Virus record (IMG/VR): IMGVR_UViG_646311924_000007
Span: 33,898 to 97,897 of that record
From: a virus
Taxonomy: Duplodnaviria; Heunggongvirae; Uroviricota; Caudoviricetes
Strand: one strand, 5' to 3'
DNA length: 64,000 nt
Below are positions 19,073-29,451 of this stretch, in pieces (positions within the stretch are counted from its first letter, which is position 1; every line of letters begins with the position of its first letter). The position numbers were made by a program, and so were the translations under genes. Under the pieces are notes generated by a model. That model did no database searches. It saw only the letters and a list, made by a program, of their open reading frames with translations, and was not told the origin of the DNA.

Positions 19073-19408
19073 CTACTTAATGCGCTCGAGAATCCCTCCC
19101 CACATATCATTTAGATATTCGATATGAGCCAAAACCTTATCAAGACACTCTCGTGTAAACCATTCAGTATGCCCGCCACCGGCGCTTTTCTCCCACGGCG
19201 CATTCCAGGGGAAAAAGGTTGCGTGTAAAGCCCGCTCAAGATTAACCATTGCCAAACGCGTACCACGATAGACCCGTGAAAGCGCAAAATCGGGACTCAC
19301 TTGTAGCCCTTTAAACCGTGCCAATGGACCACATGAAATGCCGATTTTAAAAGTATCTCCGTTCTCCGGCACCAGAACGTAGAGGTAGTGTTGTTTCTCT
19401 TCTTGCAT
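19073..19408 (-). CDS. T5orf172-type (GIY-YIG-like) domain protein (111 aa)
   Basis: Motifs matching the T5orf172/GIY-YIG-like pattern: YLYVL...GDTFKIGIS...LERALH...GGGHTEWF; start codon checked at 19406-19408. Confidence 0.55.
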   Translation of the reverse strand: MQEEKQHYLYVLVPENGDTFKIGISCGPLARFKGLQVSPDFALSRVYRGTRLAMVNLERALHATFFPWNAPWEKSAGGGHTEWFTRECLDKVLAHIEYLNDMWGGILERIK

Positions 19409-23486: not shown

Positions 23487-24384
23487 GCACTGGAAAAACA
23501 TTACTATTTATAAACTTTCTCGTGAGGCGGATCTGACCGACTTAGAAGATAAAAAGAAAATGATCCTTTTCACGCCATGCGGTAGTCAGGATATGGCCAA
23601 GTTCGGTTTTGTATCGCCATTTGGTGATAATTCTGAAGTTATCGCTATGCATGGAAATGGTTTTATCCTTGTTGAAGCAAAGCGCGAAACAAAAATTCTT
23701 CCCCCGCCGGTTATCCAGCGAGCTATTCAAGAAAAAATTGAAAAACTTGAGCAAGAACAAGCGCGTAAACTGAAGAAAACAGAGAAGGACTCCCTGAAAG
23801 ACGAAGTTCTGCATTCTCTTCTGCCACGGGCTTTTTCAAAGTTTTCTGTTATCCAGGCGATCTACGACGGTTCAACTAAACGTATCTATATCAATGCCAG
23901 CGCGCGGCAGGCAGAGGATATGCTCGCGCTTATGCGTAAGTCTCTGGGTTCTCTTCCTGCTGTTCCCCTGAGTGTTGAAAATCCCATTGAATTAACGCTG
24001 ACCGACTGGGTACGTGATGGTAGTGCTCCACAGGGATTTCAAATGGGGGATGCGGCAGAACTTAAGGCAGTGCTTGAGGATGGCGGTATTGCCCGAGTGA
24101 AAAAGCAGGATTTGGGAAGCGATGAAATTTCCACACACCTGGAAGCTGGCAAGCTCGTCACTAAGTTGGCACTCGACTGGCAGAACCGCATTAAATTTAC
24201 ACTGGACCATAACTTCAGCCTTACCAGCGTCAAATTTGCGGATGAATTGCTTGAGCAGAACTCTGATATTGATAGTGAAGATGTTGCGCAGCGACTGGAC
24301 GCAGATTTCTTCCTGTTGACCAGTGAAATTTCGTGCCTGGTTGATGCTCTGGTAAATGCCCTTGGCGGAGAGGCTAAGCAGTGA
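23479..24384 (+). CDS. hrdC: RdgC-like recombination-associated protein (HrdC)
   Basis: Strong similarity to E. coli RdgC as I recall it ([13 protein letters not shown]..., [34 protein letters not shown]); ATG at 23479 chosen over the longer track ORF starting 23365. Confidence 0.8.
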
Positions 24385-27300
24385 AAGAGCTGTGCTATGG
24401 ATCTGTTTGCAGTGGAATTGAAGCCGCGAGTATTGCCTGGGAACCGTTGGGTATGCGTCCGGCGTGGTTTGCTGAAATCGAGCCTTTTCCATCGGCCGTT
24501 CTTGCGCTCCGCTGGCCCCATGTTGCCAACCTTGGCGACATGAAAAAACTTGCCAAAAAAGTCTTGGCTGGGGAAATCGAATCCCCTGACGTGCTCGTCG
24601 GGGGAACACCATGTTTTACCGCGGGGCATATGGTTCTTTGTAAAAATGGCTATAAACCAATAGAAAATGTTTGCCCTGGTGATTACGTAGTCAGTCATCT
24701 CGGGCGGTTACAACAAGTAAAAAGAGTTGGTTCAAAAATAGCTAATACGGGGTTACTTAATGCCGTTGGGCAGCCTTTAGGTATAAGAACAACCAATGAC
24801 CATCCCTTCCTGGCTGTTCGGTGGAAAGCCCAAAACACCCGGAAAAATGGCACATATTTTAAGAGAGAGTTGTTGTCTGAACCGGAATGGCGAGCAGCAT
24901 GTGATATGCCGGGATATCAATGGTGCGCTCTAACTAATTTCAATATTGCATTTCCAGATATTTGTTCTCGGTTCTTGTCTGAAGAACAGGCTATGTATCT
25001 TGCGGGCGCTTATGTTGGCGATGGATATATTAGGAGATGGAGAGGTAAATCTAAGAAGGCGGTTGTTTTTGGCATAAATTGCCAGAAATTGAGAAAGTTT
25101 CATTGCCGCATACCAGAAAACATATTTTCCGTGGCAAGCGAAATCCGAGGGAGCATCAAAGTAACCTTGAATGATACGTGTTATGCCAATTGGCTTAATG
25201 AACATTTTGGCGAGTTAAGCCATGCTAAGCGTATCCCTGCATGGGTGATGTCGCATCCATTGCGTCATGTGTTTTTACAAGGCTATCTTGATACTGATGG
25301 GACACCAAGTGGTAAAGCGGGATTTAGAATTAATAGTGTTAGTTCTGCGCTTGCTTGGGGCGTTGCGGGGTTGTCACAGACTTGTGGTTATGTTTCTTCG
25401 GTCAGCTTTATTGAAGTTGAGCCCAAAAAAGTGATCGAGGATCGCGTGGTAAATCAACGGAATTATTATCAGGTAACAATCTGCCCGCAGAAATTGTCAC
25501 GTAAATCAAGATTGGCTCATGGAATGCTTTTACGAACAGTCAAAGAGTTTAAATCGGTAGGCCTAGATACTGTATACAACATAGAAGTCGAAGGTGATCA
25601 TTCCTATATCCTCAATGGTGCGGTGGTCCATAACTGTCAGGCATTCAGTATCGCGGGATTACGTGGTGGGCTTGATGATGAGCGTGGCGCGCTAACTTTA
25701 AAGTATGTGGAGCTTGCAAATGCAATTGACGACAAACGGGCTGAGTCATTTCTCAAACCAGCCGTTATCGTCTGGGAAAATGTCCCAGGAGTCTTGTCAT
25801 CGGCAGATAACGCCTTCGGATGTTTCCTTGCCGGATTGGCTGGAGAAGATGTGCCATTTGAACCAGGTGATCGACCTGAATCAGGAAAAAGCAACGCGTT
25901 CTGGCGGTGGGATGGCAAAACCGGTTGCCATGTTCCAAAGTGGCCGCAGTGTGGTTGTATTTATGGACCGCAGCGAAAAGTGGCCTGGAGAATCCTTGAT
26001 GCCCAATACTTCGGAGTGGCACAACGACGCCGACGCGTGTTTGTTGTCGCAAGTGCTCGAACAGATCTCGATCCCGCAACGGTACTTTTTGAGTTCGAAG
26101 GCGTGCGCCGGAATATTGCGCCGAGCAGAGGCGAGGGGAAGGAAACTACCAGATATACTTCAAACATCGCTATCAGAACTTGCGATGATACAAACATAAT
26201 TGCCATGGCACATGGGCAAGGAGGGGCTGAGATAAAAACCGATAATTCGGCACCAACTTTGACATGTAACCATGAAGCACCAATTGTATTGCTCGGCGAC
26301 GGTAGAATGCGCCGTCTTACCCCTGTCGAATGTGAAAGGCTGCAAGGTTTTCCTGATTGGCATACGTTGATCCCTACGGAAAAGCGTAAAAAAGTTAATT
26401 CAGATGAACTGGCATATCTGCACAATCACTATCCAGATTTAAGCGAAGAAGAGGCCGCAATGCTTGCAGCTGACGGACCGCGTTACAAAGCGATCGGCAA
26501 TAGTATGGCAATACCAGTAATGCGCTGGATTGGCGATCGGATTACTAAGGCCGTATGTCGGCAGAAAGAAGGAAGTGAAACAAAAGAGCGAAAAGTTAAA
26601 CCAGCGGCAGAATTCGAACGGTCCATATTCAAATGGGCTGGTGGAAAATTTGGTGTTCTGGAACAAATCTTTCGCTATTTGCCAGAAGGGAAGCGCCTGA
26701 TTGAACCTTTCGTTGGTGGCGGAGCTGTCTTCATGAATGCCGGATACCAGGAAAATCTGCTAAATGATGTGAATGCTGACCTGATTAACTTTTACAAGAC
26801 TCTGCAACGCGAGGCGCATTCACTTATCACTCTGGCACATCGTTTCTTCCAGGACTACAACACACAGGAAGGATACCTGGCAGTACGGAATGCGTTTAAC
26901 AAACAAGTCTATGATGATTTACATCGCGCAGCGGCGTTTTTGTTCCTGAACCGACATTGTTTTAACGGATTGACGCGTTACAACCAGGCCGGTGAGTTCA
27001 ATGTCGGTTATGGGAAGTATAAAACTCCGTATTTCCCATTACAGGAGATGGAAGCCTTCCTCGGTGCGGAAGGGCGGTCTGAGTTTGTATGCGGTGATTT
27101 TGCAGCGGTGATTGAAGCTGCCGGAGAAGGAGATGTCATCTTTTGCGATCCGCCGTATGAACCGCTTCCAAATACAGAGGGATTCACGAACTATTCCGGT
27201 CATGACTTTAAGTTTGAAGAGCAAAAACGCCTGGTGTCTCTGTTGACGGATGCTCATCGTCGAGGTGCAAAGGTTCTCATTACTAACAGTGGCGCGCCAA

Positions 27301-27422
27301 ACATCAGAGAGCTTTATCATGACAGTGGCTTCAGAGTGGAACCTCTTTTTGCCAGACGTTCTGTGTCTTGTAAGGGGGACACTCGAGGTGTAGCTCATGA
27401 CGTTTTGGGTATATTGCTCTAA
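24381..27422 (+). CDS. dmt: bifunctional DNA methyltransferase Dmt (N-terminal C5-cytosine MTase interrupted by an intein; C-terminal Dam-like N6-adenine MTase)
   Basis: C5-MTase motifs I ([13 protein letters not shown]), IV ([12 protein letters not shown] split by insert), VI (ENV), VIII (QRRRRVF), X (GNSMAIPV); C-terminal FVGGGAV and DPPY motifs of Dam-type MTases; GTG start at 24381. Confidence 0.85.
24612..25634 (+). mobile_element. intein with LAGLIDADG homing-endonuclease domain (341 aa; Dmt residues 78-418)
   Basis: Begins with Cys (CFTAGHMVL, block A), block B TTNDHPF, two LAGLIDADG-like motifs ([21 protein letters not shown]), ends VVHN followed by the extein Cys of the PCQ motif. 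Confidence 0.8.
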
Positions 27423-27429
27423 TAAATTT
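27413..27429 (+). promoter_or_regulatory. C1 operator 17-mer (perfect ATTGCTCTAATAAATTT) overlapping the dmt stop codon
   Basis: Exact consensus; a degenerate inverted copy follows (TTTATTAGTGTAAT). Confidence 0.7.
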
Positions 27430-27603
27430 ATTAGTGTAATATCACCTCAATGAATCGTGATTTATAGAGCGATTTAGCTGTTAGCCGCGACAGGCGCGGC
27501 GGTAAGCATGGCTGGGCCTAGTCCTCCCAGACAAACCACCGAGTTGCCAGGTTGACCATGCGCCTAAGTGGCAACGCCGAAGTGCGTTACGAGCGTCCAG
27601 TTT

Positions 27604-27629
27604 GCCCATCTTCGGGTGGGCGTTTTTTT
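27604..27629 (+). terminator. rho-independent terminator-like hairpin
   Basis: GCCCATCTTCGGGTGGGC followed by GTTTTTTT, about 190 nt downstream of the operator. Confidence 0.5.
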
Positions 27630-28094
27630 CAGGGTTTTCGTCATGGTTAGCGACTTTGCGGCGGTTTAGAAACTGACCATTAAAGTAAATGCAAACGATG
27701 ATCTGATGATGGTAGCGGCCTAAGAAGCCAGATGCCATGGGGTATGAGTCGTCCCCCGTCAAAAAATCGACCGCAGAGTGTCCCCGTCTGTGTATTAGGG
27801 AACGGGGAGGCACAACAGGTAAGGGCGCTGGTGTGATTAACCAGATGAACGAGAAGGGGCCATCTGTTGGTCAGCGTCCTTTCCTGTTGCGTTTTCTTTT
27901 CAGCGTAACAGCGGTGCTTAACAGCACTTTGGGTACAGTTCCACGAATTTACGGGTATATCCCGTCATGCTGAAGGCGCTAATCACGCTGGAAGCCAGGG
28001 TTATGCATCCCCTGTTACCGAATTGCAGCCAGGGCGCGGTGCGCCGAAAAGCATACGGAGGTGGAAGCCCTCGCCGGAGACGTACCCGGCAAGT

Positions 28095-28169
28095 GATGGT
28101 GTAGCTCAGCGGTAGAGCAGTTGGCTGTTAACCAACTGGTCGGTAGTTCGAATCCACCCACCATCGCCA
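28095..28169 (+). tRNA. tRNA-Asn (anticodon GUU)
   Basis: Hand-folded cloverleaf: 7-bp acceptor GATGGTG/CACCATC, D-arm GCTCAGCGGTAGAGC, anticodon loop CUGUUAA, T-loop TTCGAAT, 3' CCA encoded; coordinates anchored to overlapping track ORFs. Confidence 0.8.
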
Positions 28170-28174
28170 CTTTA

Positions 28175-28261
28175 GGGGAGTTAGTCCGTAGGGGTAGCGG
28201 GGTAGACTGTAAATCTACTGTCATTGCGACTCGGGTGGTTCGACTCCATCACTCCCCACCA
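28175..28261 (+). tRNA. tRNA-like gene, class II, anticodon GUA (Tyr-like)
   Basis: Acceptor GGGGAGT/ACTCCCC, anticodon stem-loop GTAGA-CUGUAAA-TCTAC, 15-nt variable arm, T-arm GGTGG-TTCGACT-CCATC, CCA encoded; D-arm geometry irregular by 1 nt. Confidence 0.45.
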
Positions 28262-28265
28262 CATT

Positions 28266-28341
28266 GCCGATTTAGCTCAGTTGGTAGAGCAGTCGCTTTG
28301 TAAGCGAATGGTCAGCGGTTCGATCCCGTTAATCGGCACCA
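28266..28341 (+). tRNA. tRNA-Thr (anticodon UGU)
   Basis: Acceptor GCCGATT/AATCGGC, D-arm GCTCAGTTGGTAGAGC, anticodon loop UUUGUAA, T-loop TTCGATC, CCA encoded. Confidence 0.8.
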
Positions 28342-28345
28342 ACAT

Positions 28346-29076
28346 AACAGGTAAGAGCATTCTCCCTTATGGGGCCTGGCTTAAATGCATCGAGTGCTCT
28401 TACCGTTGTGATGAAGTGCAGATCTTAGAAGCAACCAGAAGATAAGCATCTGGCTTCACAACATAAACCGCAGGAACGACCAATAAACGGTAGTCCGTAT
28501 GGAGAACACCCCGTTGAGGAAGAGGCCTGGCCGGAACCGTAACCGGCGACTGGTAATGTGTGTAAATGGAGCGAAATATGTGGGCGTTTAACGGGATACG
28601 GGTTGTAACAGCGATTATTAACGGCGAACTTAAGTATTCACGTTTCGAGACAAATGAACGTGATGGGAAATGTATTGGTGTGCGGTTAGTAAGAGAATAC
28701 GCATAACAACTACAACGTTGAGAACACTGGCGTAACGGGGTCATATCCCAATCTACGAATAAATGTTGCGTTGCCGCGTGACAACCAGTGTTCTCAACAT
28801 TGTGGTGAATGCACAGGCTGATGTGCCGCAACTACAGTAGTGCGCGCTTTGCGGGGCTTGCTACAACCCTGTGTCGGAGTTCAGCACCGACCATCACAGT
28901 TTGATTCTCTGGCATGAGCATAACGCTGAAATAAGTCCAGTCTGGTGCGGTCTGATCACCCGCCGTTAGCTCCACGAAACGGAGCACGTAACAGGTAAGA
29001 GCATTCTCCTGTAACGGGTTCATATCCCAATCTACAGGTCCACCAAGAATGCTCTTTCCGTTGCGGTGAATGCGGC
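28346..29076 (+). repeat. ORF-free tract with three repeated hairpin units (candidate structured RNAs)
   Basis: Repeated blocks ACAGGTAAGAGCATTCTCC (x2), GTAACGGGKTCATATCCCAATCTAC (x2) and TTGYGRTGAAKGC (x3), each embedded in 10-18 bp inverted repeats; only implausible ORFs across it; coordinates +/-1. Confidence 0.45.
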
Positions 29077-29214
29077 TAAGCGCACGCGGGGAAATGGTTA
29101 TATCTGTCCATTATTTCTCCTTGTTTCCACGTCCACGGTGGATAACCAGCCAAAGGACACCGGGAGGAACCCGGCACCGCAGCTTTTTTATTCGTTAAAT
29201 AATGGAGTGAGAGG

Positions 29215-29451
29215 ATGCAGAACAATCCGAACAAATGTCGAACGCTATGGGTGCGGTTATATATTTATGCCGTCCTCTGTTTGATTGTGTCACTGGTTCT
29301 GTATGTTTGGCTTTTGCCAAATATGATCTCATCTAACAGCACAATACTTGTATTGTTGGGAGTCCTTCTCGCGCTCATTTACCCGGCTTTCGCAGTAGTC
29401 TTTTTTCGTGAAAAAACCAGGAAATTAATTAATGAAAAAAACGTTGATTAG
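29215..29451 (+). CDS. small integral membrane protein (78 aa)
   Basis: Two TM helices; overlaps the start of the downstream lipoprotein gene. Confidence 0.45.
   Translation: MQNNPNKCRTLWVRLYIYAVLCLIVSLVLYVWLLPNMISSNSTILVLLGVLLALIYPAFAVVFFREKTRKLINEKNVD

Follow-up and report, generated by a model that had tools for sequence, protein, structure and literature searches.

In this work we describe a family of RNA hairpins that recurs in many phages and prophages, four members of which lie in the leader of the ban operon of a P1-like (Punavirus) phage-plasmid. The DNA concerned is a stretch of 64,000 nucleotides from the IMG/VR virus record IMGVR_UViG_646311924_000007 (positions 33,898 to 97,897), hereafter the window, in whose numbering coordinates are given unless another locus is named. 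The four hairpins, termed U0 to U3, are each built on a scaffold helix of about 20 bp, YRYAAC-(A)-GGUAAGAGCAUUG...CAGUGCUCUUWCC-GUUGYGG-UGAAUGC, which is topped by an exchangeable head. They belong to a large phage-wide family, and the pairing of their scaffold is selected at the RNA level on the transcribed strand. On balance, we consider it probable that the units serve as RNase III processing sites, which divide a long non-coding leader into tRNAs and small RNAs (sRNAs). Processing by RNase III is itself a known mechanism, while the repeated and modular form in which it would be deployed here is new.

Four hairpin units in the ban leader

The tract in question lies in the long and mostly untranslated leader of the C1-repressed ban operon, between the end of dmt (27422) and the start of ban (30637). 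The nearest relative of the window is Escherichia phage vB_EcoM-Ro157c2YLVW (98.6% identity over the tract; hereafter Ro157c2YLVW). A first-pass annotation of this DNA had described the interval 28346-29076 as free of open reading frames (ORFs) and as carrying three repeated hairpin units, with inverted repeats of 10-18 bp and shared sequence blocks, that might represent structured RNA genes or protein-binding sites. The three units, i.e. U1, U2 and U3, are recovered both as inverted repeats and as folds of the + strand, and a fourth one that had been overlooked, U0, lies upstream of the tRNA cluster, so that U0 and U1 bracket the tRNAs:

27811..27891, + strand: U0, a scaffold hairpin without the bulge (CACAACAGGUAAGGGCGCUG...CAGCGUCCUUUCCUGUUGCG); repeats, pairing scan 11/12, fold -40.4 kcal/mol, z -5.2
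28343..28414, + strand: U1, scaffold CAUAAC-A-GGUAAGAGCAUUC...GAGUGCUCUUACC-GUUGUG with tail AUGAAGUGC, and a head with a UCCC-UUAU-GGGG hairpin; inverted repeat, pairing scan, fold z -5.5
28709..28812, + strand: U2, a 22-bp scaffold of different sequence (ACUACAAC·GUUGAGAACACUGG / CCAGUGUUCUCAAC·AUUGUGGU) with tail GAAUGC; inverted and direct repeats, fold -46.3 kcal/mol, z -7.0
28987..29073, + strand: U3, scaffold CGUAAC-A-GGUAAGAGCAUUCU...AGAAUGCUCUUUCC-GUUGCG with tail GUGAAUGC; repeats, pairing scan, fold z -6.3

The inverted repeats span 28350-28362/28392-28404 in U1 (13 nt), 28709-28730/28785-28806 in U2 (22 nt, with 54 nt between the arms) and 28994-29007/29046-29059 in U3 (14 nt). The stems are thus present but longer than first described, amounting in full to about 20-22 bp, with a base of 6-7 bp (CAUAAC/GUUGUG), a bulged A or a mismatch, and 13-14 further pairs. 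The shared blocks are likewise real, and their copy numbers in the 64-kb window lie far beyond chance, with three copies of AACAGGTAAGRGC and two of GTAACGGGKTCATATCCCAATCTAC against 0.00 expected in either case; TTGYGRTGAAKGC has exactly two perfect copies, in U2 and U3 (0.06 expected), and in U1 it is represented by the variant TTGTGATGAAGTGC, which is one base longer. On the + strand none of 200 shuffled sequences folds as well as any of the units, and the reverse complements of the units fold worse than the + strand.

U0 is retained in P1, P7 and RCS47, and U2 in all P1-like phages examined. U1 begins just 2 nt past the CCA of tRNA-Thr and is 91.5% identical to a unit adjoining tRNAs in the unrelated Klebsiella phage MK54. 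The head of U2 contains a hairpin resembling the anticodon arm of the initiator tRNA (CGGGGUCAUAUCCC, 28736-28749) together with a second hairpin, and the unit is directly followed by a further small hairpin, GCACAGGCUGAUGUGC, at 28811-28826. The head of U3, CCUGUA-AC-GGG-UUCAUAU-CCC-AAUC-UACAGG, is similarly anticodon-arm-like at 29015-29028; U3 recurs (at least 98% identity over at least 80% of the length) in 427 of the 5426 E. coli genomes, with plasmids as the carriers in nearly every case. As had been proposed, the units are not tRNAs: neither ARAGORN nor the Rfam tRNA model RF00005 makes a call in 28342-29200, and it is only sub-hairpins that resemble tRNA arms. The units here have no promoters of their own and lie within the Pban transcript; the reading as structured RNA is supported, but free-standing RNA genes are not the best description of them.

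A hairpin family of phages and prophages

The family is characterized by a YRYAAC/GUUGYG base, a bulge or mismatch, 13-14 bp formed by a purine-rich 5' arm and a pyrimidine-rich 3' arm, and a variable head. A covariance model of the scaffold, built without the heads (R1), scores U1 at 53.4 bits and U3 at 52.8 bits, values that are high by construction because both sequences were in its training set. U0 and U2 satisfy the pairing scan (11/12 and 12/12, respectively) but are divergent subtypes that go undetected by R1. The first-pass annotation had also missed the wide distribution of the family. Parts of the tract align with unrelated phages at 84-92% identity, and inspection of four such loci revealed the same hairpin framework: beside two tRNAs in a T1-like Klebsiella phage, in Citrobacter phage phiNP, in a 9NA-like phage of E. 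coli, and after tRNA-Gly in a Klebsiella prophage. A scan of viral contigs with an exact pattern returned at least 120 stretches, and BLAST searches with the 3' arm and tail gave matches in lambdoid, T1-like, N4-like and 160-kb phages and in 1136 or more of the 5426 complete E. coli genomes (at least 21%); the family is also present in P1-like and 9NA-like phages. In a collection with one genome per species, 40 of the 55 pattern matches possess the full hairpin, nearly all in Enterobacterales and spread over about 40 species; the remaining 15 are about as many as a pattern of 18 specified bases would match by chance in 596 Gb.

The first-pass annotation had suggested a covariance-model scan and a comparison across P1-like genomes as checks. 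In the former, Rfam 15 yielded no family for the units, either in a permissive E-value mode on the window or in gathering mode on 18 related loci; matches to mir-142 and mir-465 were set aside as hairpin noise. In the latter, which we extended to unrelated phages, the stems proved to be conserved and covarying. The element carries no annotation in the records examined, and searches of the literature by sequence words and by topic found no description of the family. No unit was detected by the pairing scan or R1 in HK022 (20000-40751), nor is there one in the DLP12 prophage of K-12.

The typical contexts of the units are untranslated operon leaders of lytic-cycle transcripts: between the gene for the Q antiterminator and that for the holin, just past a tR'-type terminator; downstream of a CI-like repressor and a PL-like promoter; the P1 ban leader; and small tRNA operons with their own promoter. 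In these settings the neighbors of the units are small modules that recur in varied order across phages, including DicF-like and STnc100/PasD-like RNAs and short hairpins. The anti-sRNAs AgvB and AsxR, which we considered as candidates, are short pR'-tR' transcripts lying upstream of the units in late leaders and are distinct from the units. The family is common and yet unannotated, with no Rfam model. Its recognition would offer annotators a marker for non-coding "RNA operons" of phages, predict how phage tRNAs and prophage sRNAs of the DicF and STnc100/PasD types get their ends, and explain the mosaic exchange seen in such regions.

Selection on the transcribed strand

Across all loci gathered, the pairing scan gave 259 matches as against 7 in shuffled sequence. 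The 81 distinct arm pairs obtained from many phages comprise 1353 Watson-Crick and 145 G·U pairs, as opposed to only 18 A·C and a further 104 combinations that do not pair, and the variable letters of the 5' base differ only by transitions that preserve pairing. In an alignment of units, A1, 92.3% of the cells are paired, and 9 of the 20 pairs have changed on both sides; none of 500 shuffles reaches the observed values, and controls in which the arms were slid are 34-66% paired. Orientation tells the same strand: each of the 22 units that have a tRNA within 1.5 kb points the same way as that tRNA, and in 93 of 112 cases the upstream ORF runs in the direction of the unit. Proximity to a tRNA at this distance is also enriched (18% of units versus 5.8% of random positions in the same loci). 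The pairing, the bias in wobble pairs, the compensatory changes and the co-orientation with tRNAs together indicate that the structure is selected on the transcribed strand and not as a DNA palindrome.

A member in the Qin prophage and the link to RNase III

The Qin prophage of K-12, which was not in the training set of R1, harbors a member at 19174-19261 of locus L131, between ydfC and dicF in the dicBF operon (28.7 bits, E 8.7e-5). A simpler scan for arm pairing at a stringent threshold singles out the same site in a 24-kb stretch, with 0.07 hits per shuffle. R1 also detects a second Qin member (L131 11163-11224, - strand; 28.0 bits, E 1.3e-4), which is flanked by cspB and the holin gene essQ and has the orientation of the Qin late operon.

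The 190-nt DicF species is RNase III-dependent, with its 5' end placed by primer extension between positions 813 and 814 (bioRxiv 10.1101/2023.04.14.536235, confirming Faubladier 1990). We brought this end into the numbering of the locus by two routes. A length of 190 nt, measured upstream from the annotated 3' end of dicF (L131 19435), places it at about 19246; adding 813 to the likely dicBp start (about 18439/40, taken after TTGACC as the -35 element, a 17-nt spacer and TAATCT as the -10 element) places it at about 19252. Both positions fall inside the 3' arm (19238-19258) of the helix of the Qin unit, with a conversion that is good to about ±7 nt. The predicted 20-22 bp helices of the units also conform to the rules reported for RNase III substrates in vivo, i.e. 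an intramolecular helix of at least about 20 bp with G-C pairs at its center (PMC6212723), and their central AGAGCA/UGCUCU core is nearly invariant.

The Qin site shares with the units of the window not only the scaffold and its placement in an untranslated part of a repressor-controlled prophage operon, but also its neighbors. The segment just 3' of the Qin unit, i.e. the 98-nt precursor segment between the unit and dicF, is homologous to 27485-27579 (77.6% identity), and the STnc100-like module just 3' of dicF has its counterpart downstream of U3, where 29062-29089 is 93% identical to it over 28 nt. It differs in that its scaffold is divergent (CGAAAGCGCAUGG/CCGUGCGCUUCCG) and lacks the GGUGAAU tail, and earlier descriptions treat it as a single processing site, not as part of a family that is repeated across phages and bears exchangeable heads. 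The coincidence of the Qin member with the published RNase III-dependent 5' end of the DicF precursor makes RNase III processing sites the best explanation for the units. The earlier suggestion of protein-binding sites would thus hold in a modified form, with cis-acting hairpins recognized by host RNase III at the level of RNA as the best-supported role.

Exchangeable heads with tRNA-like motifs

Head length varies from about 25 to 170 nt, and close relatives have exchanged whole heads, in the manner of cassettes, on scaffolds that are retained. In P1, D6 and SJ46, the head of the unit after tRNA-Thr combines a D-arm-like hairpin with a T-arm (AGGG-UUCGAAU-CCCU), which in the first unit of P1 are mounted on an acceptor-like stem. 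At the same position the window, Ro157c2YLVW and P7 have a different head, and RCS47 has both units in tandem; the third unit of P7 and D6 has yet another head. A T-arm-like hairpin, with a 4-bp stem and a UUCRANN loop, is present in 12 of the 81 distinct heads versus 0.07 in shuffles.

The 25-nt block common to U2 and U3, whose tRNA-like sub-hairpin had escaped the first reading of the sequence, belongs to a head motif of the form [stem]-AC-GGG-YUCAUAW-CCC-AAYC-[stem] that is found in about 29 distinct contexts and on two scaffold subtypes. Its closing stems covary (CCGGGCG/CACCCGG, CCGGGUG/CACCCGG, CCAGGCG/CACCUGG, GCGUG/CACGC, CCUGAUG/CAUCAGG and CCUGUA/UACAGG), and 29 of 30 matches have CAU at the anticodon position in a search that leaves the loop unconstrained. 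The commonest form of the motif agrees with the anticodon arm of the E. coli initiator tRNA (metZ 29-42) in all 14 positions, and other parts of metZ were not found in the loci examined. The copies in U2 and U3 of the window have diverged to 12 of 14 positions, with the loops GUCAUAU and UUCAUAU, respectively. In Ro157c2YLVW (L002 3188-3253) the GGG-loop-CCC sub-hairpin of U3 has been lost by a precise deletion of 13 nt, and in SJ46 (L134 1770-1845) a deletion between the 25-nt direct repeats has generated a U2/U3 chimera whose arms no longer pair. The anticodon-arm motif is thus selected across phages but dispensable in single genomes.

Proposed processing of the leader and competing explanations

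From the literature on the Qin member, we envisage the following course of events in the phage of the window. Derepression of C1 would allow Pban to transcribe the leader, the transcript would fold, and host RNase III would cut both strands of each scaffold helix. Cuts at U0 and U1 would excise the tRNA cluster, and the heads would be released as small capped hairpins. Cleavage of the 3' arm of U3 would create the 5' end of the STnc100-like RNA; with the 5' arm of U3 gone, GUUGCGGUG would be free to pair with CACCGCAGC at the terminator, just before the U-run. The new 5'-monophosphate ends may then invite processing or decay by RNase E, as in the maturation of DicF.

Several observations weigh against reading the units simply as processing sites. 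The sole experimental anchor is the Qin unit, a divergent member, to which the cleavage position was transferred through our own conversion (about ±7 nt), and this anchor covers neither the P1-like phages nor any canonical unit. RNase III would probably cut any RNA helix of 20 bp, so that the cleavage could be incidental to another function. Conservation extends beyond the needs of pairing: one U-A is invariant, 59 of the 81 arm pairs have a U·G wobble, and both the AAC/GUU base and the GGUGAAU tail are kept. The heads in turn have conserved and covarying motifs of their own, which simple punctuation does not explain. Moreover, the loss of the U3 sub-hairpin in Ro157c2YLVW and the broken chimera of SJ46 indicate that individual units are dispensable.

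One possibility that would account for the heads, which we nevertheless regard as unlikely to be the principal role, is that they are the effectors. The scaffold would then be a stabilizing or processing chassis, and the heads would serve as trans-acting decoys or sponges for tRNA-binding host factors in the course of lytic growth, a proposal that is compatible with release by RNase III; suggested targets include tRNA-cleaving nucleases of defense or toxin systems, the P site of the 30S subunit or IF3, and MetRS. Such a role would be in keeping with the recurrence and covarying stems of the anticodon-arm motif, its preserved CAU and 14/14 match to metZ, with the T-arm-like hairpins and the D-arm-like and T-arm combination in the first unit of P1, with the swapping of head cassettes on constant scaffolds, and with the position of the contexts examined behind lytic-cycle control elements (the repressed Pban, early-left leaders next to CI-like repressors and Q-dependent late leaders). 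Set against these are the lack of a known binding partner, trans target or phenotype, the absence of tRNA-like features from about three-quarters of the heads, the divergence of the U2 and U3 versions (12/14) and the loss of the U3 sub-hairpin in the nearest relative, and the failure of the Rfam tRNA and YrlA models to match. Combining both ideas, one might picture a modular RNA display, in which an RNase III-processed scaffold would release interchangeable small RNAs during lytic growth, including a mimic of the initiator-tRNA anticodon stem-loop (three G-C pairs and a CAU loop) and a mimic of the tRNA elbow, as putative decoys or inhibitors of host tRNA-binding machinery. This elaboration is more doubtful still; if true, it would constitute a new kind of RNA-based counter-defense or host take-over, for example against VapC-type toxins that cleave the initiator tRNA, against other tRNA-targeting defenses or at the 30S P site. 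The family would furnish a directly testable set of candidate tRNA-mimic RNAs. The units could alternatively be seen as remnants of tRNA and sRNA genes decaying without function in a recombination-prone "junk" leader, a view to which the tRNA-like fragments in the heads, the lost or broken units of some relatives and the partial dispensability of the tract, whose content differs in P7 and D6, would lend themselves. We consider this improbable, as the scaffold covaries and is conserved across unrelated phage types and many genera of Enterobacterales, and as only the anticodon arm of tRNA-fMet is copied, always in the same covarying frame, which is unlike random decay of tRNA genes.

It is very improbable that the units direct processive antitermination in the manner of nut sites or rrn leaders, with a boxA-like 3' arm (UGCUCUUU/UGCUCUUAC), a GU-rich stretch and often a small GCGC hairpin promoting read-through of terminators and Rho in long untranslated operons. 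Unit-bearing leaders do contain intrinsic terminators (27603-27630, about 29160-29192 and in locus L010), a GCGCAGGCUGAUGCGC-type hairpin lies just downstream in 35 of 99 contexts, and the 3' arm of U1 includes GCUCUUAC, the core of the λ nutR boxA. However, the boxA-like letters are base-paired in a stable helix and vary with the covariation of the stem (UGUUCUCAAC in U2, GUACCCUUACC in U1 of P1, UUGGUUUAUC in locus L036 and CGUCCUUUCC in U0), and because they change along with their pairing partners, it is the pairing that is kept and not a boxA sequence. We did not find in the units the single-stranded GCUCUUUA-like boxA, preserved as sequence and usually accompanied by a boxB hairpin, that marks nut sites. 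Moreover, units of late operons sit after tR', where Q already antiterminates, and no unit was detected in the stretch 20000-40751 of HK022, the model of RNA-only antitermination, where put-type units would have been expected downstream of PL and PR; the put RNA of HK022 is unrelated to the units. Equally hard to sustain is a function at the level of DNA, be it as a miniature inverted-repeat mobile element or as an attC-like recombination site. The way in which units and their neighboring modules are gained, lost and swapped like cassettes, among related as well as unrelated phages, the AAC...GUU ends with an extra-helical base that recall the geometry of attC, and the deletion mediated by the 25-nt direct repeat in SJ46 might evoke such an element. 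Yet the excess of G·U over A·C (145 versus 18) and the pair-preserving transitions of the 5' base argue for one transcribed strand, and the co-orientation with tRNAs is strict (22 to 0), which is at odds with the lack of strand bias expected of these elements. The contexts examined showed neither a transposase nor an integron integrase, there is no target-site duplication at the one insertion examined, which miniature elements with terminal inverted repeats would leave, and GUUGYGG does not fit the attC core GTTRRRY (with its partner RYYYAAC). Also set aside were CRISPR-repeat mimics (RNA anti-CRISPRs), retron msr/msd, type III toxin-antitoxin repeats and TIGR arrays, none of which is known to match the units in sequence, architecture or partner genes.

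Organization of the ban leader

The placement of the tract in an operon governed by Pban and a C1 operator is backed by the annotation of P1 and P7. The order of elements is Pban, the dicF-like module, U0, three tRNAs, U1, modules, U2, modules, U3, the STnc100-like sRNA, two ORFs, tRNA-Ile(CAU) and ban. Besides the units, the leader comprises the following features:

27411..27442, no strand assigned: C1 operator pair (Op72/Oban-like inverted repeat ATTGCTCTAATAAA/TTTATTAG) and Pban promoter region; inverted repeat, start of the operon
27485..27630, + strand: "dicF-like" leader module with an intrinsic terminator at 27603-27630; P1 annotation "dicF-like region", terminator scan
28095..28341, + strand: cluster of tRNA-Asn(GTT), tRNA-Tyr(GTA) and tRNA-Thr(TGT); ARAGORN and Rfam tRNA matches
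28427..28547, + strand: small hairpin (28430-28459) and 83-nt module (28465-28547) common to unrelated phages; sequence matches
28548..28708, + strand: 161-nt insertion relative to P1 with a 42-aa ORF (28578-28706); breakpoints of the P1/window alignment
28827..28985, + strand: inter-unit modules, with the hairpin GUCGGAGUUCAGCACCGAC (28873-28891) and a module at 28911-28985 ending in the hairpin GCUCC-ACGAAAC-GGAGC (28969-28985)
29062..29192, + strand: STnc100/PasD-like sRNA module with a terminator-like hairpin and U-run at its end; Rfam RF02076, 38 bits

The operator and Pban stretch is 98% identical to the P1 region annotated as Obanab/P1ban/P2ban. Upstream of it, the dmt methyltransferase ORF (24381-27422, + strand, 1013 aa) contains an intein-like insertion (Hint_2 and LAGLIDADG_3 of Pfam) that splits the C5-cytosine methylase motif GGTPC...CQAFS; the coding sequence of P1 Dmt (2265 nt, 754 aa) is about 260 aa shorter. 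Within the "dicF-like" module 27485-27630 the Rfam DicF model finds no match. The leader segment 27650-27701 (+ strand, 52 nt) is a further non-coding module held in common with other phages, having 85% identity to sequences that precede units in Klebsiella phage MK54 and E. coli phage PJ16. Matches of 27593-27761 (+ strand) to the permuted and beta tmRNA models of Rfam, at 24 and 12 bits, are far under threshold, lie outside the units and are taken as noise. In the tRNA cluster, tRNA-Tyr(GTA) (28175-28261, + strand), with its long variable arm, is an addition between tRNA-Asn and tRNA-Thr that is present in Ro157c2YLVW and absent from P1, P7, D6 and RCS47.

The modules around the units recur elsewhere in comparable positions. 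The stretch 28393-28468 is 87% identical to E. coli phage PJ16, and the 83-nt module 28465-28547 is 89% identical to Citrobacter phage phiNP, being located directly 5' of a unit both there and in P1. Similarly, 28911-29005 is 85% identical to Klebsiella prophages, where it too stands directly 5' of a unit, and the hairpin GUCGGAGUUCAGCACCGAC is found again in the late leader of a UTI89 prophage and in locus L010. The 161-nt insertion is located between the 83-nt module and U2, and its end, CATAACA, resembles the 5' base of a unit. Its 42-aa ORF has a GGAG Shine-Dalgarno motif and matches phrog_8025 over its full length (E 6.8e-25), with a counterpart annotated as a hypothetical protein in Ro157c2YLVW; hence, the tract is mostly non-coding, but not fully ORF-free as it had been described. 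Further downstream, a 78-aa membrane protein (phrog_1130) and a 275-aa lipoprotein (phrog_200), encoded in 29215-30259 (+ strand), take the place of P1 tciA/B/C, and the same replacement is seen in RCS47.

The P1 annotation assigns the tract to two minus-strand genes, plp and upl (corresponding to 28313-29040 of the window, - strand; L001 2513-3082 in P1). These frames are not conserved among P1-like phages: P7 has no such annotation, the 161-nt insertion, which falls inside "plp", is not a multiple of three in length, and whole segments are swapped between relatives. The two genes therefore look spurious and are probably annotation artefacts, so that a tract annotated for twenty years as minus-strand plp/upl can be reread as a plus-strand RNA-processing region.

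Comparison with known systems

The early and late R sites of T7, the N-leader and sib hairpins of λ, and the metY-nusA site are cut by host RNase III, which separates RNAs and sets their stability. Like the units, these classical sites are imperfect helices of about 20 bp in polycistronic phage transcripts or transcripts containing tRNAs, the metY-nusA site being located downstream of a tRNA. They differ in being single-copy and phage-specific, with no common scaffold or modular heads, and no sequence relationship between them and the units is known.

The STnc100/PasD prophage sRNAs are terminator-ended, base-pairing RNAs from non-coding islands near Q antiterminators, and those of the Pas type have a likely Hfq-binding terminator (RF02076; bioRxiv 10.64898/2026.05.13.724894). 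Such islands also house the units, and the module directly 3' of U3 is STnc100-like, its 5' strand GUUGCGGUG doubling as the base of U3, with 9 nt in common. The units themselves give no STnc100 match, and the adjacent stretch 29062-29181 reaches 38 bits (E 5e-6) against a gathering score of 47, its Qin counterpart scoring 34.4 bits.

Known mimics of tRNA, such as the bacterial Y RNA YrlA, the tRNA-like domain of tmRNA and the thrS operator, which imitates an anticodon arm, combine a long helix with T-arm/D-arm-like or anticodon-arm-like hairpins, as do the units, some of whose heads copy the anticodon arm of a specific tRNA exactly. The units differ from YrlA, tmRNA and tRNA in giving no meaningful Rfam score (for YrlA, there was no match at E up to 10 in the window and none at the gathering score in 18 loci), in having no Ro/Rsr partner, and in a topology unlike that of YrlA.

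Finally, the enterobacterial ERIC/IRU-type repeats are known as repeated imperfect palindromes of transcribed intergenic regions that sometimes bear internal insertions, and in these respects they resemble the units. Their sequence is unrelated, however, and the units are limited to phages and prophages, keep one orientation relative to transcription, and possess a scaffold that covaries as RNA.

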